Source of the DNA: Amphiscolops sp. MND2022
Taxonomy: Eukaryota
NCBI GenBank assembly: GCA_964187785.1
Contig: OZ076409.1
Location: forward strand, 23,622,001 to 23,686,000
Direction of reading: 5' to 3'
DNA length: 64,000 nt
Part shown: positions 39,401 to 63,509 of the stretch, piece after piece
How positions within the stretch are numbered: the stretch's first letter is position 1
Layout: each line of letters begins with the position of its first letter
Translations under genes and position numbers: made by a program
Notes under the pieces: model-generated
Told to the model about the DNA's origin: nothing
The model's input: the letters and a program-made list of their open reading frames with translations, nothing else
Databases searched by the model: none

Positions 39401-42400
39401 AACAACGCTCCTCAGCAATTTGATCTCAATGTTTTCGGTTTTCTGTTTTGCTTGCAACACTACATTTAACAGTTTTTGGGAAGGAATTTTGACCGACATG
39501 GCTTCGAATAGTATTCGTTGTTTTTGGTACCAAATTTTCGTTAGTGGGTTACTCGTTTGTGATTGCTTGTCACACTCTCTTGCCATGACTTCTTTTGTAT
39601 ATCTTAATCTGATATGATGAAAACACGACGGTCTTCCAATTTACCATGTCGAAATATAGAGATTTCTGATAACTTTCACTTGGCGAAGAAGCTTCTGTTC
39701 CACTTGATAAACAGTCAAAAATGCCATGATGATCTTGACACCTCTTGTCTGATTACATTTGATGCTGTTTTGAGAACTGACATTTTGAAAGGCGTTTCCA
39801 TAGTAATACAACGCTTTCTCGGAATTTAGATTTTCAAATTTTTGGATTTCTCTTGTGCTTGCAACATTACATTTCACTGTTTCTTAGAAGAGATATTTTC
39901 ACCGACATGGATTCGAATTGTATTCGTTGTTTTGCTATCAAATTTTCGTTGGTTCCTTATTTTGATTGCTTGTCGCACTCTCTTCTTGCCATGGTTTCTT
40001 TTGTATATCAAAATCTGATATTTTTGAAAACACGAAGGTCTTCCAGTTAATCATGACGAATTATCGTTTTCTGATATCTTTCATTTGGTGAAGAAGCTTC
40101 TGTTCTACGCTCGTGAGAAACAGTCAAGAATTCCATGGTGATCTTGACACCTCTTGTCTGATAACATTTGATGCTGTTTTGAAAACTGATTTACTGAAAT
40201 GCATTTCTATAGTAAAACAACGCTCCTCAGCAATTTGATCTCGATGTTTTCGGTTTTCTGTTTTGCTTGCAACACTACATTTAACAGTTTTTGGGAAGGA
40301 ATTTTGACCGACATGGCTTCGAATAGTATTCGTTGTTTTTGGTACCAAATTTTCGTTAGTGGGTTACTCGTTTGTGATTGCTTGTCACACTCTCTTGCCA
40401 TGACTTCTTTTGTATATCTTAAACTGATATGATGAAAACACGACGGTCTTCCAATTTACCATGTCGAAATATAGAGATTTCTGATAACTTTCACTTGGCG
40501 AAGAAGCTTCTGTTCCACTTGATAAACAGTCAAAAATGCCATGATGATCTTGACACCTCTTGTCTGATTACATTTGATGCTGTTTTGAGAACTGACATTT
40601 TGAAAGGCGTTTCCATAGTAATACAACGCTTTCTCGGAATTTAGATTTTCAAATTTTTGGATTTCTCTTGTGCTTGCAACATTACATTTCACTGTTTCTT
40701 AGAAGAGATATTTTCACCGACATGGATTCGAATTGTATTCGTTGTTTTACTATCAAATTTTCGTTGGTTCCTTATTTTGATTGCTTGTCACTCTTTCTTC
40801 TTGCCATGGTTTCTTTTGTATATATAAATCTGATATGATGAAAACACGACGGTCTTCCAATTAACCATGACGAATTATCGTTTTCTGATAACTTTCATTT
40901 GGCGAAAAAACATTTCATGCTCCTGAGAAACAGTCAAAAATTCCATGATGATCTTGACACCTCTTGTCTGATTACATTTGATGCTGTTTTGAAAACTGAT
41001 GACCTGAAAGGCGTTTCCATAGCAATACAAAGCTCTTCCGAAATTCGATCTCAATTGTTTTTGGTTTCTTCTGTTTTGTTTGCACCACTACATGTTCACA
41101 GTTTTGGAAAGGAATGTTTTGACCGACATGACTTCGAAATGTTTCCTTTGTTTTTGATCTCAAGCTTTCGTTAGTAGGTTTTGCTTTTGATTGCTTGTCG
41201 CACTCTCTTCTTGCCATGGTTTCTTTTGTATATCAAAATCTGATATGTTGAAAACACGACGGTCTTCCAATTAACCATGACGAATTATCGTTTTCTGATA
41301 TCTTTCATTTGGTGAAGAAGCTTCTGTTCTACGCTCGTGAGAAACAGTCAAGATTTCCATTGTGATCTTGACACCTCTTGTTTGATTACATTTGATGCTG
41401 TTTTGAAAACTGATTTACTGAAAGGCATTTCTATAGTAAAGCAACGCTCCTCAGCAATTTGATCTCGATGTTTTCGGTTCTCTGTTTTGCTTGCAACACT
41501 ACATTTAACAGTTTTTGGAAAGGAATTATGACCGACATGGCTTCGAATAGTATTCGTTGTTTTTGATACCAAATTTTCGTTAGTGGGTTACTCGTTGGTG
41601 ATTGCTTGTCACACTCTCTTGCCATGGCTTCTTTTGTATATCTTAATCTGGTATGATGAAAACACGACGGTCTTCCAATTTACCATGACGAAATATAGAG
41701 TTTTCTGATAACTTTCACTTGGTGAAGAAGCTTCTGTTCCACTTGATGAACAGTCAAAAATGCCATGATGATCTTGACACCTCTTGTCTGATTACATTTG
41801 ATGCTGTTTTGAGAACTGACATTTTGAAAGGCGTTTCCATAGTAATACAACGCTTTCTCGGAATTTAGATTTTCAAATTTTTGGATTTCTCTTGTGCTTG
41901 CAACATTACATTTCACTGTTTCTTAGAAGAGATATTTTCACCGACATGGATTCGAATTGTATTCGTTGTTTTGCTATCAAATTTTCGTTGATTCCTTATT
42001 TTGATTGCTTGTCACTCTTTCTTCTTGCCATGGTTTCTTTTGTAAATATAAATCTGATATGATGAAAACACGACGGTCTTCCAATTAACCATGACGAATT
42101 ATCGTTTTCTGATAACTTTCATTTGGCGAAAAAACATTTCATGCTCCTGAGAAACAGTCAAAAATTCCATGATGATCTTGACACCTCTTGTCTGATTACA
42201 TTTGATGCTGTTTTGAAAACTGATGACCTGAAAGGCGTTTCCATAGCAATAAAAAGCTCTTCCGAAATTCGATCTCAAATTTTTTTGGTTTTCTCTGTTT
42301 TGTTTGCACCACTACATGTTCACAGTTTTTGGAAAGGAATTTTTTGACCGACATGACTTCGAAATGTTTCCTTTGTTTTTGATCTCAAAGTTTCGTTAGT

Positions 42401-42625
42401 AGGTTTTGCTTTTGATTGCTTGCCCCACTCTCTTCTGCCATTGTTTCTTTTGTATATTTAAATCTGATATGATGAAAACACGACGGTCTTCCAATTAACC
42501 ATGACACTGTTGTTTTCTGATGTTTTTACATGTGAAGTAGCCTCTGTCTTACGAACTCGAACGGTCCACATTTTTTCGTGATGCTCTTGGCACTTGTCTG
42601 ATTACATTTGATGCTGCTTCTTTCA
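30465..42625. repeat. Satellite array, about 30 monomers of 390-420 bp with higher-order organisation
   Basis: The block GATGATCTTGACACCTCTTGTCTGA.TACATTTGATGCTG recurs throughout. The period is exactly 390 bp at 32072, 32462 and 32852. Distinct monomer variants recur in the same order; both edges are degenerate. Confidence 0.97.
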
Positions 42626-44299: not shown

Positions 44300-44710
44300 C
44301 CGATTTTGTCACACTGGATCTACAAGAATAACTTCTTTACTCTGTCTTCGTAACTGACATGAAGAAATCACAATCGTTCACAATACTTGCTGTGAACAAA
44401 ATCAATACTGTCTACGAGCTTTTTTGAACGAAGTGGTTTCTGAAGTTTTCAAAGAAATGAGATCTGATTCTCTATTGAAATTTCTAGACTTTGAAAAACT
44501 GCCCAAGTCCAACACGACAACAAGATGGAGCTCAAAAGGAGTTTTTGCTCCAATTGTGTCTCGAACTGTAGTCAAGAAAAAATGCTTAACAAATTCATTA
44601 ATGAAAGCTTATAATTGGTTGACTGAATTGAACCTAATACCCCCTAACTTGCTAAATTTGAGCCAAGAGCAATTGAAAAAACATCTAAAACTTGTTAACG
44701 ACCTATAAAT
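44300..44710 (+). pseudogene. Possible hAT transposase remnant
   Basis: The frame reads IVHNTCCEQNQYCLRAF...KLPKSNTTTRWSSK, resembling the CxxH-like and TRWSS hAT motifs. Short and degenerate. Confidence 0.35.
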
Positions 44711-44846
44711 CACTGACAATAAAGAACTTTTTGTCTTTATTTTTGTGCCTAAAACATTTAATCGAACAAGATAGCATGCAAATTGGTGCTTCTATTATAT
44801 GCAAAAAGGGCACTAGCTCGAAGAGCAATTATGCTCATCTGGTGTC

Positions 44847-45476
44847 CTAACTGGATAATTTGAATGATAGATAATTATTTGTATTATTTTGTCTCATGCT
44901 GTGATAATCCTCTAAAGACTCTGCGTCTGATTCTTCATCTGAATGTATAGTTACGTCTACATCGGACTCGCTCCGAAACAGAGGCTTCGCGGGGTGTTTT
45001 AACTCCGTCATTTTAGACGCTCTAATAGGATTATCCTCATCTTCAGGTTCAGAATTTTCTATGTTGGATGCATGAACTCCTATAGGCTCTTTACTCCTGG
45101 ATCCTGACGGTCGCATATCTTCAGCTCCGTTAACTTGTGACCTGGGGTTTGTTACTGTAGAGTGGCTCCTGTTTGACTTTATCTGTTTTAGAATAGTATC
45201 TAGTTTATTCTCCATTTCTTCTCTCATTTTTTCTATCCTATCATTGTTTTTTTGTTCGAAAATCTCAGTCCAAGCTTGTATTTCAGAACTAGTTTGGCTT
45301 GGTTCAACAAGTTGATTTCCCAGGTTAAGTCCACCTAAATTCTCATCAACATTTGAATTAGAATTAGTTAAAGTCATATTACCTGTCTCAGGAGAATCAA
45401 CTCGAGTCCTATTCCCTTCTCTTTCAGGAGACGGGGTTTCTAGAATTCTTGATCTTCTATTTCTCTTGTTTCCCAT
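44847..45476 (-). other. ORF starting inside the LTR; probable N-terminus of Gag, truncated at the LTR edge
   Basis: Clean 209-codon frame with ATG, a coiled coil (DRIEKMREEMENKLDTILKQIK) and an acidic tail. Composition changes abruptly after EDYH at 44900. Confidence 0.5.
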
Positions 45477-45872
45477 CTTTGCTCAATCAAAAACGATCAG
45501 GTTTATTGGGGAAGAATTTGAATTAGAATCCAAATTGGAAAATAATCCAAAGTCGGAAAAACAAATCAGAAAGTGTTTAAAGGGTTCAGTGAATTGGATC
45601 AACTGCACTTTGAGAGGGTTATTTTTTCAATTTAGTTTCTATTACAACCCTTTCCTTCAATCAAAATAAAAGAATGACAAGCACTTTTTCTAAACATCAT
45701 TGGGTCCTGGAATCATAAAAATAGAATGACATCAACATTACTTCATCCTATATATAGTTTTCCAATAATCACGGAATTATGACTACAAAGCTTAAAGACC
45801 CTAGGAAAAATGCTGCAAAATGATATATTAAGTGCTACAAACACTGTTCAAATGATGCATAGATGCGTGACA
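44900..45872 (-). repeat. Putative 3' LTR (973 bp) of the Gypsy element
   Basis: The minus strand starts TGTCAC and ends ATCACA (TGT...ACA). It has a TATATATA box (45749-45756) and then AATAAA (45502-45507). The internal ORF runs into AT-rich flank right after the ACA. The PPT is weak (AAAATGGGAAC). Confidence 0.6.
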
Positions 45873-45899
45873 CTCAAAAGTTCCCATTTTGGACGAAAA

Positions 45900-46145
45900 C
45901 CGTATAATGCCGCATATACACATCACCTAATACCGTATGGTAACGTATAATCAAGCCTATTCAAAATGCATGATGATGAGTAGTGATAATAGTAAAAACG
46001 TATGTTACCGCATGAATGACAAATCTAAAACCGCATGTTGCCGTATATGCTGAATACCTTTTTACGCATAATGCCGCATGATGTACATTGTAAAAATGCT
46101 TCTTACCGCATATTAGATGTTCAAAATACCGTATCATGATGTATG
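45900..46145. repeat. 33-bp phased array 1 (8 units, variable spacers)
   Basis: Motif nCG(C/T)ATnnTnnCG(C/T)AT starts at 45900, 45933, 45966, 45998, 46031, 46064, 46096 and 46129. Confidence 0.8.
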
Positions 46146-46384
46146 ATAATTTGGATGATGGTAGACTTAATCAATCTTATGCAACAATTCAGCACGTGCC
46201 TTATTATTAAATGGGTTTAATGCAATCAAAGAAGCACCTTAAGGACTACAATCGAACCCTTAAATAAATTTAAGAGACAAGGTAAACAAATAAATTACAT
46301 GACTTCATCAAAAGAGATTGTTTAGAAATGAGTCTTTTAGAGTTTTGAAATGTTTGTACAAAGGGTCTCATCACTCGTTCCTCT

Positions 46385-47407
46385 TTACTGCTGCACCACG
46401 GAACCATCACATCTAGCTGGATGTGACAGTCCCGCGTTTTTGAAGAGGAACAAGGAGGCCTCAAAACCATGAATAAAAGCTCTTGATCGAATTGCCCGTT
46501 CTTTAACTGTTTCATTCTCGTACTCGGTCGCAACCAAGTACTCACCGAGCGTCTCCAATGCTATCTGGTTGTAGCATTTTCCACAAATGTCACAATACCC
46601 AGCAACGTTGGGCATGACTGTTGGCAAGAGCCTGATGCTCTGTCTTTCTTGGGCAGGGATTAGGATAAGGTTTGTGCTATGGGTCGCACTAAATGGAAAA
46701 CCTATCTGCGTCAGGGGCTGTACAGGAGCTAGAAAAGTATCTGCTACTGTCCCTCTCAAAGGAACAGGGAAAAGCATCGGCGACAAGTTGAATCCCTGGA
46801 CAGCATTATGATTCCCGCCATTTGGTTGCATATTGTTATCGTGCCTATTTTGTTCCACAGGTTCCCTGATCTGGGTTTGCTGAAAAGCTGTAGACTCGGG
46901 ACTATGGTTGAGTGGATAATTGGGTATCGGTCGTGGCAATATCCCTCTTGCTTCACGGTCCGCTCTCACATTTGGAGGGATGGTGGCAATCGGTCGACCA
47001 AAGCTGTTTACGCTCGTATTCTGGGTGTTACTCACAGTCCAGGGGAACAGATTCTCCTCTTCGAACTCGCTGGCCACAAACGACCCTGGTGAATCCATTT
47101 GAGCTTCTGGTGGGTCCGCTATGAGTTCGGCCAGGTCTTTTTCAAGTTCTGTCCCCGTGGTTGTCATCTCTTCTCCTTGATCTGCTGTCGTTGTTGCGTC
47201 AGGGTATAATGAAGCTATTGTTGAGCCCGAGAAAGCTGACATCAAATTGCTTCCGACTGGGTTTATTCGAAACCTTTCTTCGAGCTGGCCGACATCCCCA
47301 GGAGTGACGGCAAAGGCATTGTCTGAATCGCTGGATATGTCAATGACATCTGGCGATATCGGCGAGTACAAAGAATCTTCATCAAAATTGAATTGTAGAC
47401 CGTTCAT
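46385..47407 (-). CDS. Orphan 340-aa ORF in the Gypsy 3' region (acidic/Pro-rich N-terminus, CDICGKC motif)
   Basis: Uninterrupted ATG-initiated ORF with a TATA-like CCCTTATAAGGG about 170 bp upstream. No family recognised. Confidence 0.65.
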   Translation of the reverse strand: MNGLQFNFDEDSLYSPISPDVIDISSDSDNAFAVTPGDVGQLEERFRINPVGSNLMSAFSGSTIASLYPDATTTADQGEEMTTTGTELEKDLAELIADPPEAQMDSPGSFVASEFEEENLFPWTVSNTQNTSVNSFGRPIATIPPNVRADREARGILPRPIPNYPLNHSPESTAFQQTQIREPVEQNRHDNNMQPNGGNHNAVQGFNLSPMLFPVPLRGTVADTFLAPVQPLTQIGFPFSATHSTNLILIPAQERQSIRLLPTVMPNVAGYCDICGKCYNQIALETLGEYLVATEYENETVKERAIRSRAFIHGFEASLFLFKNAGLSHPARCDGSVVQQ

Positions 47408-47449
47408 CTTGATTCAAAGAATGAGTTTTTAGAATGAGCTTTAAGTTTT

Positions 47450-48810
47450 AGTAAGATCTGGGCGACTGGTTTTCAAACTTATCAGTATCACACTGTGATT
47501 CTCCTCTTCAAGCTTTCTCTGATTTCCCAATTCCCGCGGAAAAATCGAGTGTCATTGATGCGTGGGTTTACCGAACCCCTTATAAGGGCTAGGTGTCTCC
47601 CTTCTGATATTCAGGCGGCAACACCTTTGGATTTCCACTCGTAAAAGCAAATAAACAAAATGATTTGGGGATATTCATCACCTCCATCAGTCGACAATTT
47701 CCTTTTAATCTTCTTAATCTTACTTCAACGTTTTTTAAATCGACGTAAACAAATCCGTCCTAATTCAGATTCATTCAAAATATGAATGGATCATCAATTG
47801 CATGTAACTTTATTTATGAAAACATGAATGGGAGATCTTTATAAATATATTTTACATGACTAAATCAACTAATCTCTAAAAAAACACACAGCTTGCAATC
47901 AGACTATTGTTTTTCAAAGAATCATCTTGTGAAGAAATACACATATCATCAGATAATGCATGTTTGTACATTGTTGTATCTGTGTGTCAGAGATTCTCAA
48001 GGGAACATGTAACCTCATTGTGATGTGTCTCTCTATTTTGATGCAAAGTGCTATATAGCCTACTTCTTGTATAGTTGTTGGCTGTAGCATCCTTGCACAC
48101 ATACGCAGCTAGTATAATACTGTGTGTTCGTATTCAGTAAGCCTGTCCATCGCTGCACATATGCTGTGTTACAATCCGCATGTATCCGAACGCTCGTTTT
48201 CTCTCAATGCGTATGATGACGCATATTCTTTTCATTGAATTCCGCATGATGCCGCATATTCTTTTCAACGAATTCCGCATGATGCCGCATATTCGTAATC
48301 GCTCGATGCGTACCATGCCGCATATCCTCTTCAACAATTTCCGTATGATGCCGCATACTCGCTATCCCTTTATACGCATGTTACCGTATATTGTGCATAC
48401 GTGATTCAGAAATGAGTATGCTTTGTACTATAGCGTGCTGAATAAGTTTGAAAGTTGTCAATCAACCAGTCAATCACTCTGGCAGAAGTAAACTGAATGA
48501 TTAATTGACCAATCAGCGTTCAGCTCAAATGTGTACATTTTTGCCAAATTAAAGTTCATTTGCTTTTTGCCTTTTCTTTGATACGCCACGTCTTTACTCC
48601 ATTGATATTGCTAAATCTTTTGTCATATCGTACATTGTCTATTCCGCAGTTTTAGTCTGTTATAAGTCTAGTTATTCAACCTCTTTTCCAGTACTTAGTC
48701 AGTCTTTTATCACCTGTTGGATCCTTATTTAAACACATTCTCCATTAGTCCTTGGGACTTTACTTCTTCTTCGCCAGCTATTCCTTGCGGTGACATCTAT
48801 CTGACTCCCC
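47450..48810. promoter_or_regulatory. Candidate bidirectional promoter between divergent cargo genes
   Basis: Lies between the ATGs at 47407 (-) and 48814 (+). Contains a palindromic TATA-like CCCTTATAAGGG (about 47577-47588), CCAAT (48509-48513) and array 2. Confidence 0.4.
48176..48390. repeat. 33-bp phased array 2 (7 units, mostly different spacers)
   Basis: Motif starts at 48176, 48209, 48242, 48275, 48308, 48341 and 48374; consensus CCGCATGATGCCGCAT plus a 17-bp spacer. Confidence 0.85.
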
Positions 48811-48813
48811 CCA

Positions 48814-51800
48814 ATGGATTCACAGAGATCACGGAAATCCAGAAAAGATCAGATATCCCGGAAACAGCAATCGGCTTGGGGCTACAAATCTCTTACTTCT
48901 GTGTCGCCACGTAAGTTCAAATTTTTAGTTTCTTCTGAGATTCATTGTTGCTGATTTGTTTTCCGATCGGTAAAATTTTAATCATCAGCTGGCCGGGCTG
49001 ATATTTTGAATAAGCTACTCTTGCATAGTATGCTTTTGATTCAGATTTTCTTACGGAAGTCAGCAACTTCCGTCAAATTAGTTCAGCTACTTCCGCCCAA
49101 TTTATGTTTTCTAAAACCGCGTCCGTAATTAGAAAATTCTTGAAGAGTAGAGAGCTGAGTTCAGTTTTGTTTTCTTCCTTAATGAGATTTGTCAAATTTA
49201 TTTGTTTTAGTTGAACTTGTGGCTACAGAAAAATCACCAGGTCGTTCCCCTACCAAGATTTATACTCCCTTGGAGGTCATTCCACCAGGACAGTCTACTG
49301 TTCCAAGCCCCATTGCGAATCCAGAGCATATTTCTGTTATCACCATTGGCAGTTCCACTATTGCATCGGACAACGCGGCAGTTGAATTAGAAGAACCCCA
49401 AGGTAAAACTGTTGTTGATACAGCTGAGGATATAGTTGACCTAGATGGTATCGTCCATAGTCCGGCTCAAGTTAACGTTGATTTATTGGATTCTACCATT
49501 AATTCTGAAGAGTTAGAAACTTCTAAAGAAGAGGATATTCCACATTTAGCCTCCATCCACGAAAATCTGGTAGCACCACTTGTATCGGGAGTTAATGCTA
49601 TGACCATGGATACTTCTCCTGAAGTTATTACTGATCCCAATGTAGGGGCTAGTGTTCCTTTACCCAAACAGCACGCTAGTACATCTCTGTTCACTCATTT
49701 CTTGTTACCTTCTCCAACTGCCCAGGTTGAACAACTTGATCTAGATCCAGCAAAACATAATGCCTCCCTTAACAAAAGTAACAACAAAGCTGATGAGGTA
49801 CCCACTGATTCCGAAACCACGGAAGTTCACAGGTCTAACGTTCAGGGTGTCAACATTACACGAAATGAGCTAGTGGCCATAACAAACGTTATCGAAAAAC
49901 TCCCACAGTCTTACATCGGTGGGACTGAAACTGAAAACAATCAGGGGATAGCTTTCTCGGTCGTTGAAGACACACTCCAAGAGCCCCCCAGAGGTAATCC
50001 AGAGGAAGATCAGCATGCAACTACTAGTGGGCCTAACATATCCCATTCAGCACAAGAACTCGATGAAGCACCGGTTATCTGCAACAAACGACCGAGGCCT
50101 CGCTATTCTCTTGAAGGGTCCATGCTTCGCAAGCACCCTGTCCTGAAACTTTCCGCTACAGGACCAGTCAATCGAGGCAAAACACCTTACAAATGGACTT
50201 TCCGAGTGTGCCGAATTGAACTATCCCTTATGAGCCGAGGAGTGTTGGAGTTAATGGCGCATTATAAAACCGAATCACACCTGGTTAGGGAACATCGAAT
50301 TAGGATGGAAACTCCGGGCATGGCACTATACGATAAGGACGAGTGTGAACTACAGGGTCTAGCTCTAGCAGGAGCGAAGAAAATCGCTAGGGATACATAT
50401 CCCATCGCCCCCCAATTGGCCTGTTATCGCCTGTTGGTAGGACAAGACTCAATGCCACATTTCGGAACAGACAAGAGTCACACTGAAACGGTTTCCTCAC
50501 AAATCTGTATCATAGAGATTGGGTTGCGCAGAGGAGGCGACATTTCCTGCGTGACTGACATTTATGACGAAATCAACCGATTTTCAAGCGGGGAAGGACA
50601 AGCAATCACCTTCAATTGGAGTCCTTACCGCATATTTGTAAGTGATCTCAATTTTCATCAATCCTATAATACTACTTCAGGTATTTGAAATTCGTGTGAC
50701 CAGAAGTTTTTGAGTAATCATGATGTCGTATTCAATCGTTACCAAGTCCGACCGTAGTTTTCTTTTCAGGAAATCATCACTCACATGTTCAGGGAATTGC
50801 TCAACTATTGTGTGACCAACGTAAATGCTAGTGGGGTTTATTCTCTGTCCCTGATGAGCCATCCCACCGAGAAAACCTTATATCTCAGCTTCTGGTCAGG
50901 AAATGTCCTGCATCAGGTATGCATTGGAACTGGACCAAGAGGAAACCTGATTCCTCGCAAAATCTTATCTCTTGTTGCTTCATTCATTAGTTTATTTGAG
51001 ACGACGCCCCCATGTATCAGCCTCATTGGGTTAGGAGAGCGGCTCAGCCATTGTCTCAACGACTTTACCTGGTCATCCTCGGCCGATAATCATCAACAAC
51101 TTTGGCGAAAACGAATTCGAGAGGTGTCTCGCATTACCAACTGCCAAAATTATCGAGAGACACGATTTCAGAAGTATCCTCGATTAACTCCTGCTGAGAT
51201 TGCGGACCAGCCCTGGATAAAGACTGGTTGCAATCACTAGCCCAGTTGCATAAGGCATTATATCGTTAATTTCGTTTTTCTTAATGTTTTCGTTTCTTTG
51301 AGTTTACTTCAGTTTGTTTCCAGTGTGTGATCAACTTGCAGTACTCCCTCGAAGAAGCTTCTACCCTGATTGAGACTCTCTCACAGAATTGGGATCGCGT
51401 CCGAGACCACCTTGAGCAGGTTGCCAGACTCCCATCATATCGCTCTCACATGAGAGAGGTATATGTTTTTTGAAAATGTTTCATATGGCTATACATTTTG
51501 CTCATCTCGAAAAAACCTTTTTCTTTCAGCCTTATAGGTTATGTACCGAAAAGATATTTGTAATCATCATTCTTGTTAATTAATGTAGAGAACTTTAAAA
51601 AAATTGGGCAACTGAATGCTAGTAATGGAAATCAACAATATGGAGGTAAATCAACTTTAAGTTTGTATCAAACCTTGATCGCACCGAATATATAATTAAT
51701 GGAAACATTGGGAAGTCAATGAAACGAATAATCTAATGTAAGAAATGAATGGATGTTGAAACTCCCCCTTTTTCGGAGCTATATCAAGGGCACAGCAAAA

Positions 51801-54800
51801 TTTTAGTGGAAAGTTCTGTTTTTATTTTACCTAAAGGGTTTGTTAGCAGATCTGACGGTAAAAATTCCAGTAAAATTTCGCCTTTTTCCGTTTTTTCCTG
51901 AAGGAAGCAAGTTTTTATGGCAAAATGTTTTGTCTTGTTATGATGGATTGAGTGTTTGCTTAGAGCTATGCATGCTTGATTGTCAACAAACACGCTCACA
52001 GGTTTCACCACAACAACTTCAAGCTCACTCAATACACCACAGACATACGACAACTCTTGTACAGCAACAGTGCAAGCATTGACTTCAGCTTCGGCTGTTG
52101 ACAGAGCAACACTAGCTTGCAACTTACTGGTCCAACACACACAACCACTCACACTGTTCAATTTCACACACACGCCACTTGTACTCTTTCTCGATGTCAA
52201 CTCACCGGCCCAATCTGCGTCAGAGAAAGCACTAACAGACACGCCACCTTCACACATTCTAAACACGGGTTCATGTTGCTTGGTTCCTTTCAAATACCTC
52301 AAAATTCGTTTTCCGGCCATCCAATGTTCTTTTGATGGATGCTCTAGGAAACTACTTAAGACGTGAGAGGCATGAGCATTGTCAGGACGACTGCTAAGTG
52401 CTAAGTAGTTCAAACTACCAACTAATCCTCTATAGTCTCGTCGTTCCATTATGCTTTGTTCGTCATAATCTTTTTCTTTGTTACTTTCTCGTTCGAACTT
52501 GGTATTTTCTGGTAACGGATTTTGTACTGGTTTACACTCTTCCATGTTGTAGCGTCTCAAAAGATCGTCAATATACTTCTCCTGACTTACTGCGATTTCG
52601 CTCTCTGTAACGTCTATCTTCATCCCGAGGAACCAATGTAATGAACTACAGTCACTCACTTCAAACTGTTCTTTCACTTTCTTCTCGAACCATCCAACAA
52701 AAGCATCCTGTCGTCCCCAATAAAGCATATCATCCACCCACACACACACAACACACACCTCATCACCAGTACCTCTCACAAACAAGCATTTGTCGTTTAT
52801 ACATGCTCGGAATCCGACTCTTTCTAGGAACATCTTTAGTGTTAAATACCAGTTGCGCCCAGACTGTTTAAGTCCGTATAAACTCTTTCGCAACTTACAG
52901 TACACGTGGTTACCTTCGTTATTTTTGACTTCAAAGCCTTCCGGTTGTTCCATGTAGATGTTCTCTTCTATGTCTGCATTCAAATATGCTGTTTTGATGT
53001 CCATCTGTCTTGGTTTTACTTGATACTGCGCTGCTAGGTTCAACAGAATCCGTATTGTAGACATTCTCGCAGTTGGTGAATAGGTTTCGAAGAAATCGCG
53101 ACCCTCAACTTGTGCAAAACCTTTCGCAACAAATCTGGCTTTGCACTTCTTGAAACTTCCGTCTTCGTTGTGTTTCATCGCAAAATGCCATTTTCCTCTC
53201 AATGGCTTAGTTTCTTTCGGTAGTTCCTCCAATGTCCAAACTTGGTTACTACACAAGGAATCGAATTCAGTTTTCATTGCTTCCTTCCACTGAGGATCAC
53301 TCAAGGCTTCTTGAACGGAACATGGTAGCTTAATCTGACTTGGTTCCTTCTTTGCATTGAATGACACTTCATCGCCCGCAACCTCTGTGCCATGAAGTTG
53401 ATTGGATGGGATGTTGTTCACACTTGGTTGACCTTCCTTGGTTCCAAAGTAAAACTCATCCTCATTAAACCTCACACTTCTTGTTTTGATCTTCTTGGTT
53501 GCGCCGTTTTCCTCTAATCCAACTATGTACGTTTTGCTGTTCTCTGCAAAACTTAGAAAGACTCCCACTTTTGCTCTCTCGTCGAATTTTTCTCTGAATT
53601 GCTTCTCCACAAAACTGTAAACTTTGCAGCCAAACACTTTTATAAAGCTTAAATTTGGCCTTTCAGCGTACATCCTCGCATATGGAGTTTGCTTGGTTGC
53701 TGAGTGTAGGAGCAAGTTTTTGATGTAAAATGCATAGTTCAGTGCGTATTTCCAATATTCTTTGTCCATGTTGGCCCGATGGATCATACACCTGGCCATT
53801 CCGCAAATTGTTCCCCACACTCTCTCAATTTTCCTATTTTCCTCCGGTGTATACGGTGCAGATGTTTCCTGTCTGATGCCTTTGTTCCTACAAAATGTCT
53901 TCATGTCACCGCCAACGAACTCTTTTGCACAATCGGTTACAAGAACTCTTGGTTTCCCTATATCTGCACTGTACTGCTAAAATTTCGCTGCTACTTCGTC
54001 ACGGCTTTTCATGAAATAAACCTTACCATAGCGACTGTAACTATCTTGGAATCCTATGGCGTACTTATGACCATCCACCGAAACTGGTGACACTGGGCCT
54101 AGGACGTCACAATGTACGTAGTCCAATGGCTCTTTGGCCCGTGTAATGCAGTCTTTGGGTACAGGTCTTCTTTTGGCTTTGTTAACCTCACACACTTCAC
54201 ACACGAACACGTCATTTTCACACACATCCATTCCAACAACATGTTCCTTTAACTTTTTCAAATCCTCCCAGTTATTATGACCCAGTCGGTCATGCCACTT
54301 ACTTAGTTTACTGGAGAGGCATGTCTCATGCTTGGTTACTCTCAAATCAGGGACTATTCTCCAAACGAACAAATTATTTCCTTGTTCTATGTGAAACTTG
54401 GTTCCATCAGACGTCGTTAAGGAGTTTTCCTCTCCGAAACGAATCTCCACCCCGACTTTCTTCAGTCGCGCTACGGACACTAGGTTTCTGTCGTACGCCG
54501 GCACGTACAACGCATCCCGCAACTCCACTCTTCTCGCGTTACCTTCGCTATCCTTTACACAGAAGACAGCACGGCCTTTTCCGCACAGTTTCGACTCCGT
54601 CTTGTTGGCACATCCAACTACTCCTTCTATCTCCTCATTCAGTTCGGCAAACAGTTTCCTGTCTTTTATCATGTGGTTCGTGCAACCACTATCTACCACC
54701 AGGTCATTACTACTCACCGCAATATCTTCATTTGCAAAGAATGAAAATTGGACCTCCTCATTTTTGCCTGAGTCATCCTGTTGCACGGCTAATCTTGCCT

Positions 54801-57800
54801 CATCGGTTCCTTGGTTGCTTTGGTTTCCTCTCAATTTGAAACAGGTACTTAAGGTGTGTCCTTTTTTCTTGCAGTGGTTACAAAATCTTTCCGGCATTCG
54901 ATGATTACTATCGCGGGAAGTCACTTGAGACGGGCAAAACTTCGCTATATGTCCTGGTTTACTGCATTTGAAACAGACGCGAGGTTGTCCAAAACTCTTA
55001 GTTTGCTTGGTCTTTGTACGTGCTTTTTGTGTACACTCAAATGATTTGTGACCTGGTCCTCCACAGAGATGACATTTAACTTCGTTACGACTGAGGAACG
55101 TGGTTTCTTCTGCTCTTGGTTTCCTTCGGTCGGTGTCGAAATTTATCAGATCCCTCTTTACCTCGTCCAAATTTTTTTGTTTCCTTGGTAAACTTTACGA
55201 GGGCACAAAATGTCTCGAAATTCTTGGGAAGACCTTTGAACAATATTGATATAAACATTTGCTCGCTTAGCGCTTCGTCCACCTGACTTAGGTTGTATTG
55301 TAGGTCTTCAGTTCTGGTAATGTAATCAACACTTGTTTCATTTTGATCTTTTCTAAGTGAGGTCAGTTTCTCAATCAGCTGCTGCAACCGAGGACGCTCA
55401 AAACTCTTAAAACGGTCGCACAAGGCTTTCCACGCAGCTGGACCTCCACCTCTGTAACTTCTTACGAACAACAGAGACTTTTTATCCAAGCATTGTACCA
55501 ATTCGCACCAGATCTTATATTTTTGTCAGCAAAAATTTCCGCCGCCTTTTCATCAGCTACCTGCCTTTCTTCTCTCGATGAACCACTTCTTGCTTTCGGT
55601 CTACAAGACTCAACACCCTCACTTCCATTCAGCACACCAAACAGTCTCAACAAATACATTCTAGCTTCAAACTGTTCACAAAACATAACAAAGTCATCCT
55701 CGCTCCCTGAAAATTTGAGACTTTCCAACTTCGTTTGGACACTCACAGCCATGACAATCAAGCATGGAACACTCACTACAAACACTCAGATAATAAATAT
55801 TATTGATTTCAAAATTCAAATAATAAAAAATTAGGCAACCATTTTTTTTATTTCGAATTGATGACAAGCTATTTACTCTACGGCAAATCTGCTAACAAAA
55901 CAAAAGTGAACTTTTTTACTATTTAGTCATTCAGAGTCTGAAACTCTAATTTTTATTTGATTTCATCATCCTGAATTGAAATGCATTTTGTTATTAAAAA
56001 AAAATCTTTTTTTAAATTCAAAGGGGAATTTCTTATATGGGAAGGGATCTAGCACTAATTAAAGAGAAAGTTCAAAGTTTTCCGTAATACTTTAAAGAGT
56101 TTTTCTGGGTTCAAAAAGTTTTAGTAAAGTTGTGAAATCCAATTGTAGAACTTTCTCTTCAACTGTCCGCAGACTCTTTTTTTCAAATTCCAACTTTTTC
56201 TTTGAAATTGTCAACTTTTCTCGCAGAAAATGTTGCTCCTCTAATGTCCCATTCAATCACTTGGGATCACAGACTCCAGTGGAATCGTTCTGGGCCACAT
56301 AACCTTATAGGTTATGTACCGAAAAGATATTTGTAATCATCATTCTTGTTAATTAATGTAAAGAACTTTAAAGAAATTTGGGCAACTGAATGCTAGTAAT
56401 GGAAATCAACAAAATGGAGGTAAATCAACTTTAAGTTTGTATCAAACCTTGATCGCACCGAAAATATAATTAATGGAAACATTAGGAAGTCAATGAAACG
56501 AATAATCTAATGCAAGAAATGAATGGATGAATCATATGTTGAAACAGCCAAATACGTTGGATGAGTGTTTTCGGCTGGACACGGCCTATCTGGCCCGATT
56601 GTTCATCATACGTTGTGTCATCGACCATTGTTAGTATTTTTCACGTATACTTGTGTCAGAATAATATTTCTGAGTCAAAAAAATCCCGTAACGAAAGTTT
56701 TAGTCGTTCTTGAATTTATTCCTTCACTTGTAATTTCCGCGAAGTCAATAGTATTACCTTTTGTAGATAGTATCGTCCTTAAGTACATCTTTATTATTGA
56801 TGGAATATACAACGTTTTACTCGTTTCACTCTTTCACCAATAGGATGAGCGGCTTCCAAAATATCAATTTCCGCATTTTCACGTATGGCTATAGCTTGTA
56901 ATTCAGTATAGTAACGCATAGTGACTGTTTGTAATTCCGCATAGTTACGCATGGTGACCGTTTGCAATTTCGCATAGTGACGCATGGTGACTGTTTGCAA
57001 TTCCGCATAGTGACGCATGGTGACTGTTTGCAATTCCGCATAGTGACGCATGGTGACTGTTTGCAATTCCGCATAGTGACGCATGGTGACTGTTTGCAAT
57101 TCCGCATAGTGACGCATGGTGACTGTTTGCAATTCCGCATAGTGACGCATGGTGACTGTTTGCAATTCCGCATAGTGACGCATGGTCTCCATTTATATTT
57201 CCGCATGATGACGCATATGCGGCATACGGAAAAACGTATGATAACGTAGGTTCTCGGTTACTCTTCAGAAATAATCTTCTTTTGTATTTGATCTCAATCT
57301 TGTTGATTTATTTTAGACAATTCCGCATTCTCTGAAGTGCACAATCAGGTCGACAACGGGTTCCGACTTTACAACCAATTCTCAGTCTTTGTATACTGCC
57401 AATTACAGAATCTGTTTCCTGACAGTTTCCTTGGCGACATAACAGACTGGGATAATTATCTAAAAATTGATCTCTCTACTGCTAATTTGCCTTTCAAAAC
57501 CCCTGCGGAATTTGTCCTAGGAGCTGATTACCAGGCTCTCATTATTACCAGCCGATTACCACGACCTAGTAAATTTGTAGAGCAGACGATGTCCTTCTGC
57601 AAAGCTTTCTGTGTTGTACTGCTCAATCACGAAGTAATTAAGTCTGATCTCCTGCGAGGACTCTCATCATTCGATCATGCTGTTCTACTTGATGGACCAG
57701 AGGAGAACTATGTCTCTGCTGTCGAAAGTCTAACAAGTTATTTTGTTTCTTGTGGATGGATGACCGCTAGCAATAAGGTTAAAGCTGTGAGCCAATACCG

Positions 57801-58425
57801 ATCATTCGCTATAAAACTTCGTGCTGAAAGTGGAATTATCAGATCTGATTGGGTTCAATTCCTCATTTCTCATTATGAAATGCAAAGTCGTCCTGAGTTG
57901 CCTCAATTATTTAGAAATGCTTGTCTATGCCTGCCGCCTGTTGTCATCGGACCTCCTAAGTTTCACGTCTCGATTCCTGGCTTGGAATCAGATGAGCATT
58001 CTTTCCGTTCCGTAGTAAGGAGTCTGCAATTGTCTTATGTCACAGTTCCCAATGTTTCCAGCTTATACAAGAGTCCGAAAACTATCAGTCGCGTGTTCCG
58101 ATTACTTGGACGAGGACCTAGCTTAATTCGCGATAAGAAATTTTCCGTGAGGAATTTCCTCAAGGGAAGTGAAGTTCGTCGCAATGCTGTATTCGGAAAA
58201 TTGGAGATATCCTACAAGAAGTCCGTGCTCCGAGGGGAAGGTTTGCCTTTATTTCTGGACATGACGTCGCCTAGTGAGAGTAGAACTCCCAGTTCCAGTA
58301 GTTCCCCCGTAACAGGGCCTTCTTTGGGGCGTGTTTCTGTTACCGTTTCCCGCTGTTCGGAAGAAGGAGTAGGAAGAAGTGCTGCTAAGAGCAAATCTAA
58401 GGCGTCCAAGGAAAAGAAGAACTAA
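48814..58425 (+). CDS. Spliced antisense cargo gene, about 1,105 aa, zinc-finger + degenerate hAT/ZNF862-like transposase; interrupted by Copia
   Basis: Exons 48814-48910, 49211-50637, 50770-51226, 51313-51458, 56548-56629 and 57317-58425 total 3318 nt with no stop once Copia is removed. All introns are GT-AG and phase-consistent; the 51226 donor is weak. Motifs: RVC...SRGVLELMAHYKTESH finger, TLSQNWDRV, LQNLFP, LSSFDHAVL, RPELPQLF..ACLCLPP. Confidence 0.7.
51532..51761 (-). repeat. Copia 3' LTR (230 bp)
   Basis: Matches 56305-56544 with about 6 substitutions and 2 indels; preceded on the minus strand by the PPT AAAAAGGGGGAG (51762-51773). Confidence 0.93.
51784..55752 (-). pseudogene. Copia gag-pol polyprotein with frameshifts and one premature stop
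   Basis: Three CX2CX4HX4C knuckles; protease VVDSGCTNHM; WHDRLGH...CEVC; integrase HCDVLG, TDCAKEF, PEEN; RT KARFVAKG, MDIKTAYL, LYGLKQS, VWVDD; RNase H FSDADWAG, VDNQAC. Breaks near 55500 and 55100-55170, and a TAG at 53977. Confidence 0.95.
56290..56304 (-). promoter_or_regulatory. Copia primer-binding site (internal tRNA-iMet type)
   Basis: The minus strand reads GGTTATGTGGCCCAG, i.e. the copia-type GGTTATGGGCCCAG with one extra base, directly next to the 5' LTR. Confidence 0.85.
56305..56544 (-). repeat. Copia 5' LTR (240 bp)
   Basis: About 97% identical to the 3' LTR; minus-strand termini TTTCAACA...CCTATAA. Confidence 0.93.
56871..57250. repeat. 33-bp phased array 3 (12 units, central 7-8 homogenised)
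   Basis: Motif starts every 33 bp from 56871 to 57234; central units are CCGCATAGTGACGCATGGTGACTGTTTGCAATT. Lies in the last intron of the cargo gene. Confidence 0.95.
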
Positions 58426-58606
58426 TTTTTTAACATAGTTTGTTATTTAATTGTACGTTTCATGTATTCTTGTTGCATACTTTGTGTTTTGTTTATTTAT
58501 ACAATTGTTGGTTCAACTGTATTAAAGGAGCAGTATTTATTTGATGAAGCTAAGACATCAAGGCTCCAGAAAAGAGATTGAACAAAAGTCTGATTGTCAG
58601 TGGTTT

Positions 58607-61600
58607 TTAGTATCTATATGAGTCTGAGTAATTGGGGTTAGGATTTGGGCGTAAGTTGTATTTTTCGCCACGAGTATTTATGGGTTCTTCTTGCAATGGG
58701 GTATTTTGTGAATTTTCTGGGGATTTTTGTGTGTTTTTTGGAACATTTTGGGTATTTTCTGGGGTTTTTATTCCAGTTGTATTGTTTTTATTTTCATGGG
58801 TTTCTTCTATAATTGGAGTATCATCAGGAATTTCTTGTGGGGTTATATTTCTATTCTCCACTTCTGGAGCAGTGGTTTGTTCCACTGGGCTCCCCCCGCT
58901 GTTTTTTGAAGAATTCGGGGAGTGAGGGCGGTTTTGCTCAGGTATTTCGATTGGAACGTATTCTATATTTTCTGTATTGAGTGTAGATTCATAAGGGCTT
59001 TCCTCAAATGGATTGGGGCCAAAGGTCGTATTCCACGATTGGGCATATAGATCGTCATGTGACACTATCATCTGGTCATCTTTTTGCCAGTCCGTTTCAC
59101 GAACGAAGATATCTGCTAGGGGTGCTTGCGGCGTAAGTTTTCGTAGGCGAATTCTGTGTAATAACTGAGTTTTATTGGTACCGAGTTTTCTGACTATATA
59201 ATTGTTGTTAGGGAGAACTTTTTCGACTTTATAAGGACCGCACCATCTGAATTCACGGAACGGAATCTTAGTCGTTTGGGTGTCTGCTTTTGGGTTTAGA
59301 ATGTAGCAGTAATCCGTAGTCTCCAGCGGGGCTGCTTTTGCTTTTCTATCGTAGTGGGCTTTGTATCTAAGATAGCACTGCATGATATTTTTCTTAGTTT
59401 GGTCTAGGAGAATCTGCATTCAGCGTTGTACTTCTTCAGCGATATCAGTTTGCGGTTGATATCGAGGATTTGCGTTGTAACTAAGTTTATAATCAAGAAT
59501 ATTATGAGGTATACGTCCGTGAAACACTCTTGAAGGTTCACAACCAAGTGATGCATGGTATGTTGTGTTGTGATTAAGGACTGCCAATGGAAGGTATTTA
59601 TGCCAGTTATTCCTAAACTCGCCTGTGGCGGCTTTTAGGTGTGTTTTGACTGAGGCATGAGTTCGTTCCAGGAGACCTATTGTTTGTGCATGCTTCATGG
59701 TAGCGTGTTTTAATTCAATTCCGAGCACACCAGCGATTTTATGTTACATGAGCATTGAATTGGGTTCCTAAGTCTGTTATGATGGTTGTTGGGAGGTAGG
59801 TGTGTTTACATAGAATGTCCATTATGACCTTTGAGACCGCTGTTGCATTAATACGGGTTGCTGGATATGCAAATAGGTATCTCGAGAAGACATCTATTGC
59901 TGTTATAATATGGTCATAGCCACCACTTGTAGGAAGGTTCGGTAGGATGTCCATTTGCAGAATGTCCTCTGGCCCTAAATCCCATTCTGGGCAATTTAGG
60001 AGTTCGGATCGGAGAAGGTCATTGTTAATGCGCTTATTTTGGATGCATGTTTGGCAGTTTGTTACCCATTTTTCATTGTATTTGGCTATACAGGGGTAAT
60101 AATATTTTTGTCTAGATTCCTGAATCATTTTTGTGATTCCTGGATGGTTAGAATTGTGACCATGTAGGGCGTGGAGGAATTCTTCCAGGAGCTGTTTCGG
60201 GAGTAGAATTTGGTAGTGTGATATTATTCCTGTGTCCGTATAGTATCTACGGGTAAGGACTTCTTGTTTTATCTCGATTCTGGTGATATTCTGGAGGTAA
60301 TGTTGGTATCGGTGGTCCGATGCTAATTCGTTTTCGTCGAAGGGGTTTCCTTCGAGTTTAGCTCGCAGGTTTCTGAATACAACATCATTATTTTGCTCAA
60401 GTCCAATTCGAGCGTTGTCTTTAAAGTGTCCTGATGAACAGGAGATTAGGCCGGAAATGGGTTTGTGGAATTGTTGAAGTTCATTAACGTCATTTTCGGG
60501 TTCATTATGTGTTTCATTTTGTGCTTTTTCGCGTACGTTGTGTTTCTCTTGCCATATTTGATTTTCGGCAACCTCATCATCTGGAAGTATGTAGATTTGT
60601 TCTTCCTCTACGATACCTGAGGATTGAATGTTGACTTCTATGGCTTTTGTGTGGATATCATTGCGAAGAGTCATCTCGAGCTTCTCTGTGGGATTGACTT
60701 CGGTTCTTGAGAGGAAATCAGCCGCAGTATTCATTGATCCAGCGACATGGGCAATAACAAAATTGTATTGTAGCACGTAATCACAAGCGTTCCAGAGGGC
60801 TGGAGGAATTAATTTTGCTTGAAAAAATCGGGTTACCGATCTGTTGTCAGTGAAGACGATGACTGGGAAAGTAGATCCCCACATCAAGTGTCCAAATTCA
60901 ACGAACGCAAAATATATTGAAAGGAATTCTTTTGCGTAAATTGACATCTTGGTTTGTGTCGGGTTGAAGGTTTTTGACCCGAAGGCTATTGGTGCATATG
61001 TTTTACGTTTTGATTGTAGTTTCTGGATTGAGTCATCTATCATGATTGCATATCCGGCTGCTGTAAAGCTTGCATCAGACATAACAATTAATTGTTTGTC
61101 TTTGAGTGGCTGTTTTAACGCTAATCGGCAAGAATTTTCCAAGAGTTTATTGAGGTTGGTGAAATCTTCTACCAGATTTGTTGGTACGTAGAATTTAGAT
61201 GTTTCTTTGAGAAGTTTGAAGAACGGAGCAAGCCGTTCCGACAGGCGGGGTATATAGTTCCTGTGATAGTTTAAGAATCCAATATACCATTGTAGCGCCT
61301 TTTTAGATTTAGGGAATCGGAGTTTTGAAATGAAATCTTTCACTTTGTTGGCTTGCGGGGAAACTCCTTCGGGTGTGATTGTTCGTCCCAGAAAGTCGAA
61401 TTGTTTAACTCCGAAATGGCATTTGGACATGGAGAGTTTCAGACCGGCGTTTCGGATGCATTCAAAGACAGTTTTGATATTGGTGCACAGTTGTTTTGTG
61501 TCATTTGCTGCTATGCCAATGTCGTCGACGTATTGGGCACATTGATCTGCTTTGATTGCTCTGTCCAGATATTCTCTCATGAAGCTGGAGAATGCAGAGA

Positions 61601-63420
61601 GAGATCTGCTGAGCCCTTGGGCCAGACGGCGATAAGCAAATGTTCTGCTAGCAAAATTAAAGGCAAGCATTTGGATTGATTGGTAGTCTGCCATTTGGAG
61701 GCAGTGGTAAGCCTGGGAGCAATCCAATTTGCAGAAAAGTTTTTTCCCTGCCATGTGTTGGGCTGCATCTGATAAGGTGCTTACCGGTTGGTTATTATTT
61801 GCATAATCTTCAGTGATGAGATTATTGATTTTTCTGAGGTCCACGAGGAGTCGGAGGCGCCCATTGGGTTTGCGTTGTGCAAAAATTGGGCTGGCGTATT
61901 TGGAAAATGGTAAAGTTGTAATTATACCATATTTGTGGAGAAGTGCAAGTTCTACTGTGATATCATCTTTCAAGTTGATTGGAGTTGGCAGACTTTGGCT
62001 GTATGCTGGTCTGTCATCATTTGGTGTTAGTTTTACCTTGAACTCACGATTTATACCTATATCAAAACGGTGTCTGGCAAAAATATCGTGAAATTCAACG
62101 AGAATCCCTTCAGTTTCCTGACGTTCGACTGGGCTGAGTGTGGTGTCGGACCAGTCGAAGTTTGAGAGGAATGCTTTCCTGGATGATTCGTTATCGTGTG
62201 GGTTCAGTTTTTAAAATTCTTTTAATTCAAGAAGTTCATTGTAGATACGTTGTTGTATGGGGGTATAAGATGCAGGATCGCCTGGATCTTCCGGAGTAGG
62301 AAACCAGTACGATTCTTGTTCAGGGTTTGGTTGTGGTACTTTTAGAAGTTCATTTATCTATACATCCGTGGTTTCCTCATGTTGTATCATGAAGGATAGC
62401 ATCGCGGGGTCAACAGGCTGTATGTGTTTGATTTGTTCGGAAGTGAGGATTTTGAAATCAGCTAAATGGGTATCGATAGTTATCGTGTAGGGTAATTCGG
62501 AAAAGTTGATAGTTTGGTACCCAATAGCGTTATTGTTGACTGTGCTAAGTGACGCTGTGATGAAAATGCTATCATGGTTTTCAAATTGAGGTGATGGTGT
62601 GACGATTCCTGTTGCGTCATGGTCCATCATTTGTGGCATTTTGCTTGCTATGGCGAGTGTTTCGCCTGGTTGTAGAGTGTAGTTATTTTCAGCAAACAAT
62701 GGTGTTGCTTGCCGGATGGACGTTTGGGTGTCAGGTTTGAGTTGCATTGAGAGATAGGGGAAGGTTAGGATGCCTTGTGTGACACCAAAAATTGCGTTGT
62801 TTCTGCGAAGGAAACACAGTCCGATTAGCGGGTTTGGCAGGTTTTTCATGATTATGAAATTTTCTTTTAACATGAAATCAGCCACTTCAATTTCTAAGAG
62901 AACGTACCAATGGGGACTTTTGATTGGCCGTTTGCCACCATGATTTGGAAGTTTGGTGGAGGACCGGTTTCTTTGATTGCTTCGCTAGCGAGCAGTTTAA
63001 TTTTGTTGAGGTCTTGTTCAGATATGGCACTTGTGAGAGCTCCGGTATCAATAAGACCATCAAGTGTGAGTTTTTCGAAATCCATCGGTTTGTAGTACAT
63101 GTGGCGTTTTCTTTTCAGTGTTAAAGAGGTGGAAATTGGTAAATACGACAGGTTGCGTTCTTTGTCAAACTGTAGATGTTCGGTGAGGTCTTCATCCAGT
63201 AAGGGTTGTTTTTGGTCATCGCAAGAAGTTTTTATGGTGACATGATTTTTAATGGGTGAATCATGGTGAGTTTCGGGGTTTGGGTCGTTTTCAGTGTGTG
63301 TTGGTTGTTTAATAAAGTAGTTGTCTGGTGCATCACGGAGAAGTTCGTATGTGTCTTCAGGTTGAGTTTCTTGTGTTGAGTGTTGAAAGTTTTGTGTTGT
63401 TTGGTGAGATTCAGGTGTTA
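58607..63420 (-). pseudogene. Gypsy pol (protease, dUTPase-like, RT, RNase H, integrase), disrupted
   Basis: LIDTGA protease; RLLVDLRKIN, LDCSQAY, LAQGL, YVDD, FLG RT motifs; SDAS, FGSK, FTDN RNase H; HALHGH..HPG...C..C zinc domain, DIL, IDVFSR, TDLG, LERTH integrase. Breaks near 63420, 62890, 62358, 59735 and 59420. Confidence 0.95.
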
Positions 63421-63509
63421 TGTTTTTGTAGGTTTTGGGTTCGGCTGATGCCGCCAGTCATCAGCAGAGTTGATTTTTTGTGGTGATTTTATGTAAAGGC
63501 GTGGCGTTT

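Follow-up and report, generated by a model that had tools for sequence, protein, structure and literature searches.

Three tandem arrays of a bipartite motif in an animal Gypsy LTR retrotransposon are probably binding platforms for a regulator that the element itself encodes and that appears to derive from a transposase, much as with VANC in VANDAL elements or TnpA in Spm. This reading comes from the sequence of a 64,000-nucleotide stretch of the Amphiscolops sp. MND2022 genome (contig OZ076409.1, positions 23,622,001 to 23,686,000; hereafter the window) and of related loci. It is carried by the anatomy of the element, by selection on both the motif and an antisense gene beside it, and by a clade-wide switch in how the motif is laid out.

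The arrays belong to a Gypsy element on the minus strand, which has two TG...CA LTRs, a target duplication and a pol gene in the order protease, RT, RNase H and integrase (Table 1). The 5′ LTR falls just outside the window, and the paired LTRs of this copy differ at 17 of 1,509 sites. When we searched the genome with 45450-48600 and scored 40 of the 1,202 candidates, at least 13 matches were near-complete: the window's own and 12 others at 94-97%. Array 1 lies, in element sense, about 145-390 bp upstream of a TATA-like stretch that may be the LTR core promoter. The start of gag (44850-45476 in the window, 4405-5205 in locus L067) has an N-terminal part that diverges with the cargo gene, at 37% identity where POL is at 81%. 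ORF B, a sense cargo frame, has a conserved C-terminal part containing a CxxC (32-51% identity where relatives matched); it uses a common promoter region with the antisense finger gene and may be a partner of it.

Table 1. Features of the Gypsy element and of its arrays, in window coordinates.
Feature	Position	Strand	Remarks
gag frame start, within LTR	44850..45476	-	at the 5′ LTR reads on through the primer-binding site
3′ LTR	44900..46428	-	1,529 bp; TG...CA ends; 5-bp target duplication
TATA-like stretch	45749..45756	-	read by eye; candidate LTR core promoter
Array 1	45900..46145		8 slots; U3-side upstream part of LTR
Sense cargo ORF B	46385..47413	-	342 aa; without Pfam family
Array 2	48176..48390		7 slots; upstream of antisense finger gene, between divergent cargo genes
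Main exon, cargo gene	49186..50637	+	ends at conserved splice donor
Next cargo exon	50758..51240	+	beta-rich; frame broken in window copy
Nested Copia element	~51531..56545	-	interrupts cargo gene; 0 exact motif sites
Array 3	56871..57250		12 units; last intron of cargo gene
Last cargo exon	57307..58425	+	helical throughout; fold weakly similar to Hermes transposase (C-terminal part)
Gypsy pol (protease, RT, RNase H, integrase)	58607..63457	-	frames broken

The nested Copia element (about 5 kb) is missing from the other copies aligned and is no part of the array and cargo system; by eye, its LTRs of about 230 bp lack the usual TG...CA ends, and it has a 5-bp target duplication. Other features lie apart from the cargo region. 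The interval 30466-42505 is satellite DNA, about 30 units of 390-410 bp arranged in a higher-order structure, and frames at 9398-10084, 13657-14229 and 25566-26159, all outside the element, have endonuclease (LINE-like), MBT-repeat and SPRY matches in Pfam. At locus L039 (4283-10000), tandem units consist of an LTR end plus part of gag.

All three arrays were found where the first-pass annotation had placed them, on one strand, with array 2 between the divergent cargo genes and array 3 in a cargo intron. Array 1, which it had put next to the LTR, is really inside it, and is therefore present at both ends of each element. The window contains 20 exact bipartite sites on the plus strand and none on the minus strand, and all 20 are within the arrays; sequences simulated under an order-1 Markov model (30 of them) had 0.2 on average and never more than 2. 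Five of the eight slots are exact in array 1 (two are degenerate), five of seven in array 2 (the first slot is degenerate in the window copy) and 10 of 12 in array 3. The 33-bp period claimed for all of them holds at every step of array 3, but two steps of array 1 are 32 bp. Half-sites are 0.82-0.91 identical within and between arrays. Spacers had been described as mostly differing, which is true of array 1 (mean identity 0.32); those of array 2 (0.46) are visibly related rather than unique, and the value for array 3 (0.59) reflects its collapsed core. That core, already noted as homogenised, is identical across units (TRF 96% matches), and the unit number varies from 5 to 12 scored units among close copies.

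The motif-versus-spacer comparison across copies, to which the first-pass annotation had pointed, gave different answers at different depths. We assembled a clade of relatives, clade 1, from 20 of 150 finger matches, chosen by hand to span scores and frame lengths (fingers 58-77% identical). These 20 loci contain 429 direct-pair sites, 424 of them within the three array zones, compared to about 21 in shuffles. The promoter and intron zones each hold at least three such sites in 20 of 20 loci, and the LTR zone does so in 17. Periods are 33, 32, or 32 and 33 in alternation, and in some families two kinds of spacer take turns, giving a 65-bp dimer. When the offset test was anchored on one half-site alone, a partner stood at exactly 10 bp for 255 of 440 in-register half-sites, with three or fewer at each of nine other offsets. 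Between 13 families, each a locus picked as family representative, the second half-site is 0.73 identical and the spacers 0.32. Selection on motif and phase, as first proposed, is thus borne out at depth; both are kept past the saturation of synonymous sites in the cargo gene. At short range it is not seen. Comparison of subfamilies A and B at their orthologous LTR array gives identities of 81-83% for half-sites (50 of 56, or 89%, without the C/T position), 79-85% for spacers and 78-79% for the remaining LTR part (4 LTRs in one comparison, 2 in another). Among close subfamilies, then, the motif has hardly any advantage over the spacers, and its excess conservation shows up only at depth.

Such near-equal divergence of motif and spacers at short range is what neutral minisatellites would give, if they arose by slippage in a variable 3′ region and were homogenised by conversion; the identical core and variable unit number of array 3 also suit that origin. 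We consider it very improbable, since half-sites are common to three separate arrays (0.84-0.87) whereas spacers are not (0.30-0.35 from array to array), and since motif and phase outlast synonymous saturation. The repeat-plus-spacer look of arrays 1 and 2 also recalls CRISPR, and the first-pass annotation was right both about this look and about the lack of a Cas gene. The likeness is superficial: none of 20 ORFs scanned belongs to a Cas family, and 44500-58600 has no Rfam match (a tRNA scan was likewise empty). Spacers are orthologous between copies and drift slowly; they are inherited, at 79-85% identity between subfamilies, and some families alternate two types. A memory array of acquired spacers is therefore refuted and keeps next to no probability.

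The cargo gene is spliced and antisense to the element, with array 2 upstream of it and array 3 in its last intron. We infer that its introns can persist because it is antisense to the genomic RNA. The main exon encodes a long variable N-terminal part, a basic patch, a C2H2 finger (C339, C342, H359 and H365) and a helical region, in this order. The C and H ligands are invariant in aligned relatives, and the finger exon ends at a GT donor in all 31 loci whose match extended to that end. Purifying selection on the gene is strong: in 11 pairs picked by hand, pN is 0.04-0.24 and pS 0.39-0.96, with synonymous sites saturated in nine of the 11 (pS 0.78-0.96). A first look at the genome gave 5,810 candidates for the finger, a figure that is not a copy number. 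Eight distant relatives on short contigs (P0091, P0101, P0102, P0103, P0107, P0131, P0147 and P0169), at 23-27% identity, have the same finger and apparently the same exon end; their genomic setting could include the donor transposon.

The cargo protein is likely of hAT origin, since its finger bears a weak likeness to BED domains and its last exon a weak one to Hermes. Pfam zf-BED matches four of 41 aligned relatives (best E 1.6e-4), while the window's own finger is without a Pfam match, and Foldseek with the modeled finger exon (pLDDT 84.7) ranks the BED domain of ZBED1 second, at E 2.5. For the last exon, Hermes residues 382-570 rank first of 48,161 chains (Z 4.8, rmsd 4.3, 133 aligned), a Z that is tied with unrelated helical proteins and comes from a mediocre model (pLDDT 65.5). 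Just past the aligned part, at the place expected from Hermes numbering for the third catalytic acid, the family has an invariant proline and no acidic residue. Foldseek gave no match at E 0.001 for either cargo model, and a second VIA comparison, confined to Foldseek's candidates, did not list Hermes. Pfam gave nothing useful on the cargo exons, including no hAT match, sequence searches of solved structures with them gave chance matches only, and a full-length hAT relative of the last exon was not found among longer proteins, which is a weak negative. Read by eye, the exon at 50758..51240 is possibly the start of a degenerate RNase H-like core, a reading without database support from Pfam or from sequence searches of solved structures. 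Separately, viral polymerase clusters suggested by atlas features (0.89-0.91) were rejected as noise with low shared counts.

A sister clade of elements carries a similar half-site in another layout. Clade 2 (20 of the 104 matches of a distant relative, with fingers 42-54% identical to the window's) has the same gene layout as clade 1. Its direct-pair sites number 29, against 18 in shuffles, whereas an inverted pairing of similar half-sites at an offset of 21 bp, flanked on the inside by T- and A-rich sequence, occurs 201 times against 9. Clade 1 has 18 inverted-pair sites at offset 21, against 11 in shuffles. At least three inverted-pair sites occur in the LTR zone of 15 and the intron zone of 12 of the 20 clade-2 loci, and the promoter zone holds only 0-2 per locus. 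The LTR units repeat with a period of 50 or 68, and those of the intron with one of 39/40. In six of the remaining loci, the intron units carry a version of the inverted pair that lacks CpG. At L140 (5800-6110), the 66-bp unit of the intron array is made of two parts, and each pair has one degenerate half-site.

A tree built from 38 finger regions places the change of layout label at a single point, with support of 100/98. Eight of 40 loci were left out of the finger tree as near-copies, partial or frameshifted, and the labels of L139 and L140 were assigned by eye, that of L139 being weak. A single change is one event, and since the LTR, the arrays and the cargo gene are physically linked, part of the match is owed to common descent. 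The switch of layout along with the cargo clade nevertheless lends support to the idea that the arrays would be bound by the element's own protein. In the one clade-2 element followed into pol (L127/L138), POL is 81% identical to the window's and the finger plus last exon 45%; in subfamily C, POL is at 89% and the cargo exons at 55%, in two different copies. Because POL stays similar while the cargo diverges, the LTR, arrays and cargo gene may evolve fast, or they may be swapped as a block. L059-L062 and L127/L138 (POL 81-89%, cargo exons 45-55%) are possible cases of LTR-plus-cargo block swaps between lineages.

The same switch bears on whether the arrays could be enhancers for a host transcription factor, with the cargo protein doing another job. 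Array 1 occupies the usual position of an LTR enhancer, and the similar half-site of both clades is what a single factor would require. However, along with the cargo clade, the LTR and intron arrays exchange a direct pair at 10 bp for an inverted one at 21 bp, all in one genome. Since the geometry of a host factor is fixed and the layouts are two, two host factors or two binding modes would be needed, and we consider this explanation unlikely.

One turn of B-DNA is 10.5 bp, so the offsets of 10 and 21 bp correspond to one and two turns, which argues for a two-headed protein on double-stranded DNA. They also speak against the arrays being export or packaging signals on the genomic RNA, read by a matrin-like finger. 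That possibility draws on the common orientation of the arrays (892 forward and 226 reverse half-sites in clade 1) and on the finger's best VIA matches, which are fingers of RNA-acting proteins, TUT4 first (Z 4.5), with TUT1 and spliceosome chains also near the top. Additionally, clade-2 intron units could form hairpins (inner pairs 0.65-0.81 Watson-Crick). Yet the window arrays fold no better than shuffles (z -1.45 to +0.88), leaving the RNA option of the first-pass annotation unsupported there as far as structure goes. In clade-2 LTR and promoter units the inner positions are mostly unpaired (0.09-0.55) and one central mismatch is kept, and among the commonest pair types of clade 2 there are zero compensatory changes. 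We give an RNA signal little credence.

We propose instead that the arrays are double-stranded DNA platforms that would be bound by the antisense-encoded cargo protein. This protein is probably an oligomer that derives from a hAT transposase, has lost catalysis and contributes one BED-like finger from each chain. A pair of fingers would read both half-sites from the same side of the helix, with a spacing of 10 bp in clade 1 and 21 bp in clade 2, and the fixed period would let several units load jointly. With one array at the promoter of the LTR, another at that of the divergent cargo genes and a third in the intron, binding would close a feedback loop; we lean slightly toward a loop that activates the element or shields it from silencing over one that represses it.

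The protein might instead act on arrays of the new DNA copy or of chromatin, aiding integration or target choice rather than transcription. Both LTRs contain array 1, at 285-530 bp from one of their ends, much like hAT subterminal repeats, and purifying selection has kept a long transposase-like body. But two of the three arrays are internal, at a promoter and in an intron, where VANC binds, and the integrase has its own separate coding sequence, which makes a role in integration improbable. Within a regulatory role, demethylation of the kind known for VANC is doubtful. CpG differences between paired LTRs affect 7 of 312 site-pairs in the motif compared to 35 of 611 elsewhere (p 0.018, 13 pairs, the site-pairs being non-independent). 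However, CpG is little depleted (o/e 0.73-0.94, with 0.94 in window 1-30000), transitions at CpG exceed those at other C/G sites by a factor of only about 1.6, and CpG is absent from some of the clade-2 intron units.

A fuller history can be offered tentatively, as possible but a good deal less secure than the reading of the arrays as binding platforms. A Gypsy lineage may have captured a hAT transposase gene together with its introns, the protein may have lost catalysis, and it may now serve as a private trans-activator or anti-silencer. Within one genome, sub-lineages would then have varied the orientation, spacing and period of a nearly constant half-site, arriving at protein-array pairs that do not cross-react. 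Self-recognition would rest on a geometry code, one that bridges the divide between class I and class II elements.

Plant DNA transposons are known to encode sequence-specific regulators of themselves that act on tandem targets. For LTR elements, the available portions of PMC11963269 and PMC7264820 name the combination of antisense ORFs and tandem arrays as an open question. The family described here offers a candidate protein and a defined site, together with arrays at three fixed positions and in two natural layouts. If our reading is right, it would show by what means an LTR element becomes widespread in an animal genome, and would provide natural pairs in which the effect of spacing alone on DNA-binding specificity could be studied. 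Searches of literature mostly outside subscription journals found no account of a comparable system in an animal LTR element; supplementary repeat libraries may contain these families already.

Retroviral trans-activators offer a functional likeness. Foamy virus Tas and HTLV-1 Tax are products of accessory 3′ genes that act on LTR repeats, and foamy viruses also have an internal promoter. Their genes are sense, spliced viral genes, which are not known to descend from transposases, and Tax acts via host factors. The Gypsy element likewise has an accessory 3′ gene and repeated LTR sites, but its gene is antisense and has a candidate transposase ancestry.

Plant Retand elements are similar in anatomy. 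In the parts of PMC11963269 and PMC7264820 at hand, these have antisense ORFs and tandem arrays of unknown function. The Retand/Tat elements there share with ours a Gypsy backbone, a long region from pol to the 3′ LTR, an antisense ORF whose product is predicted to bind DNA, and tandem arrays particular to each family; the arrays and the antisense ORF were both found here. In those same parts, no shared motif is tied to LTR, promoter and intron, unlike here, and arrays occur in only about half of the Retand clusters. Their TRP28 domain (PF04195) is reported there from flowering plants only, and it was not found in Pfam scans of the window ORFs, cargo exons and relatives.

In the proposed mode of DNA recognition there is a likeness to hAT transposases. 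In Hermes, BED domains act cooperatively on paired subterminal repeats whose spacing must be exact, and activity suffers when the pair is shifted by one base (PMC10368747, as excerpted). Hermes and Ac share with the system described here paired short sites, strict spacing and a finger followed by a helical, transposase-like body, as far as those excerpts go. Here, however, the arrays are in an LTR, a promoter and an intron rather than in terminal inverted repeats, and homology is weak.

VANC provides a further comparison. In Arabidopsis VANDAL elements it binds motifs that tandem repetition has multiplied in introns and upstream regions, and it diverges faster than the transposase VANA, according to the passages of PMC5735166 consulted. 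Both systems have an accessory protein that is encoded apart from the transposition enzyme and kept by selection, with short motifs in tandem arrays in upstream, intergenic and intron positions. In both, going by those passages for VANC, the accessory protein and its targets diverge faster than the transposition enzyme. Here the targets differ with the protein between lineages, by one switch on the tree and in linked sequences. The hosts are unlike: VANDAL is Mutator-like, whereas ours is an animal Gypsy LTR element with a C2H2 finger protein, and neither DUF1985 nor DUF287 was found in Pfam scans of the window ORFs, cargo exons and relatives. Unlike VANC targets, the site is bipartite and helically phased, and its layout changes while the half-site changes little; signs of CpG methylation are weak, and binding to the arrays is predicted from sequence. 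In its proposed working the system is like VANC or TnpA, but without DUF1985, DUF287 or TRP28 it belongs to neither the VANC nor the Retand family.

TnpA of Spm/CACTA leads to the remaining parallel. Dead transposases have been argued to be regulators, and the searched text of that preprint (bioRxiv 10.64898/2026.08.24.746577) has no mention of LTR, gypsy or retrotransposon. Like TnpA and the dead-transposase regulators in that text, the cargo protein would be a transposase-derived, sequence-specific regulator of its own element that has lost its catalytic residues. In the cases covered there, the regulator stays in a DNA transposon or passes to the host; here, it would be carried by a retrotransposon.
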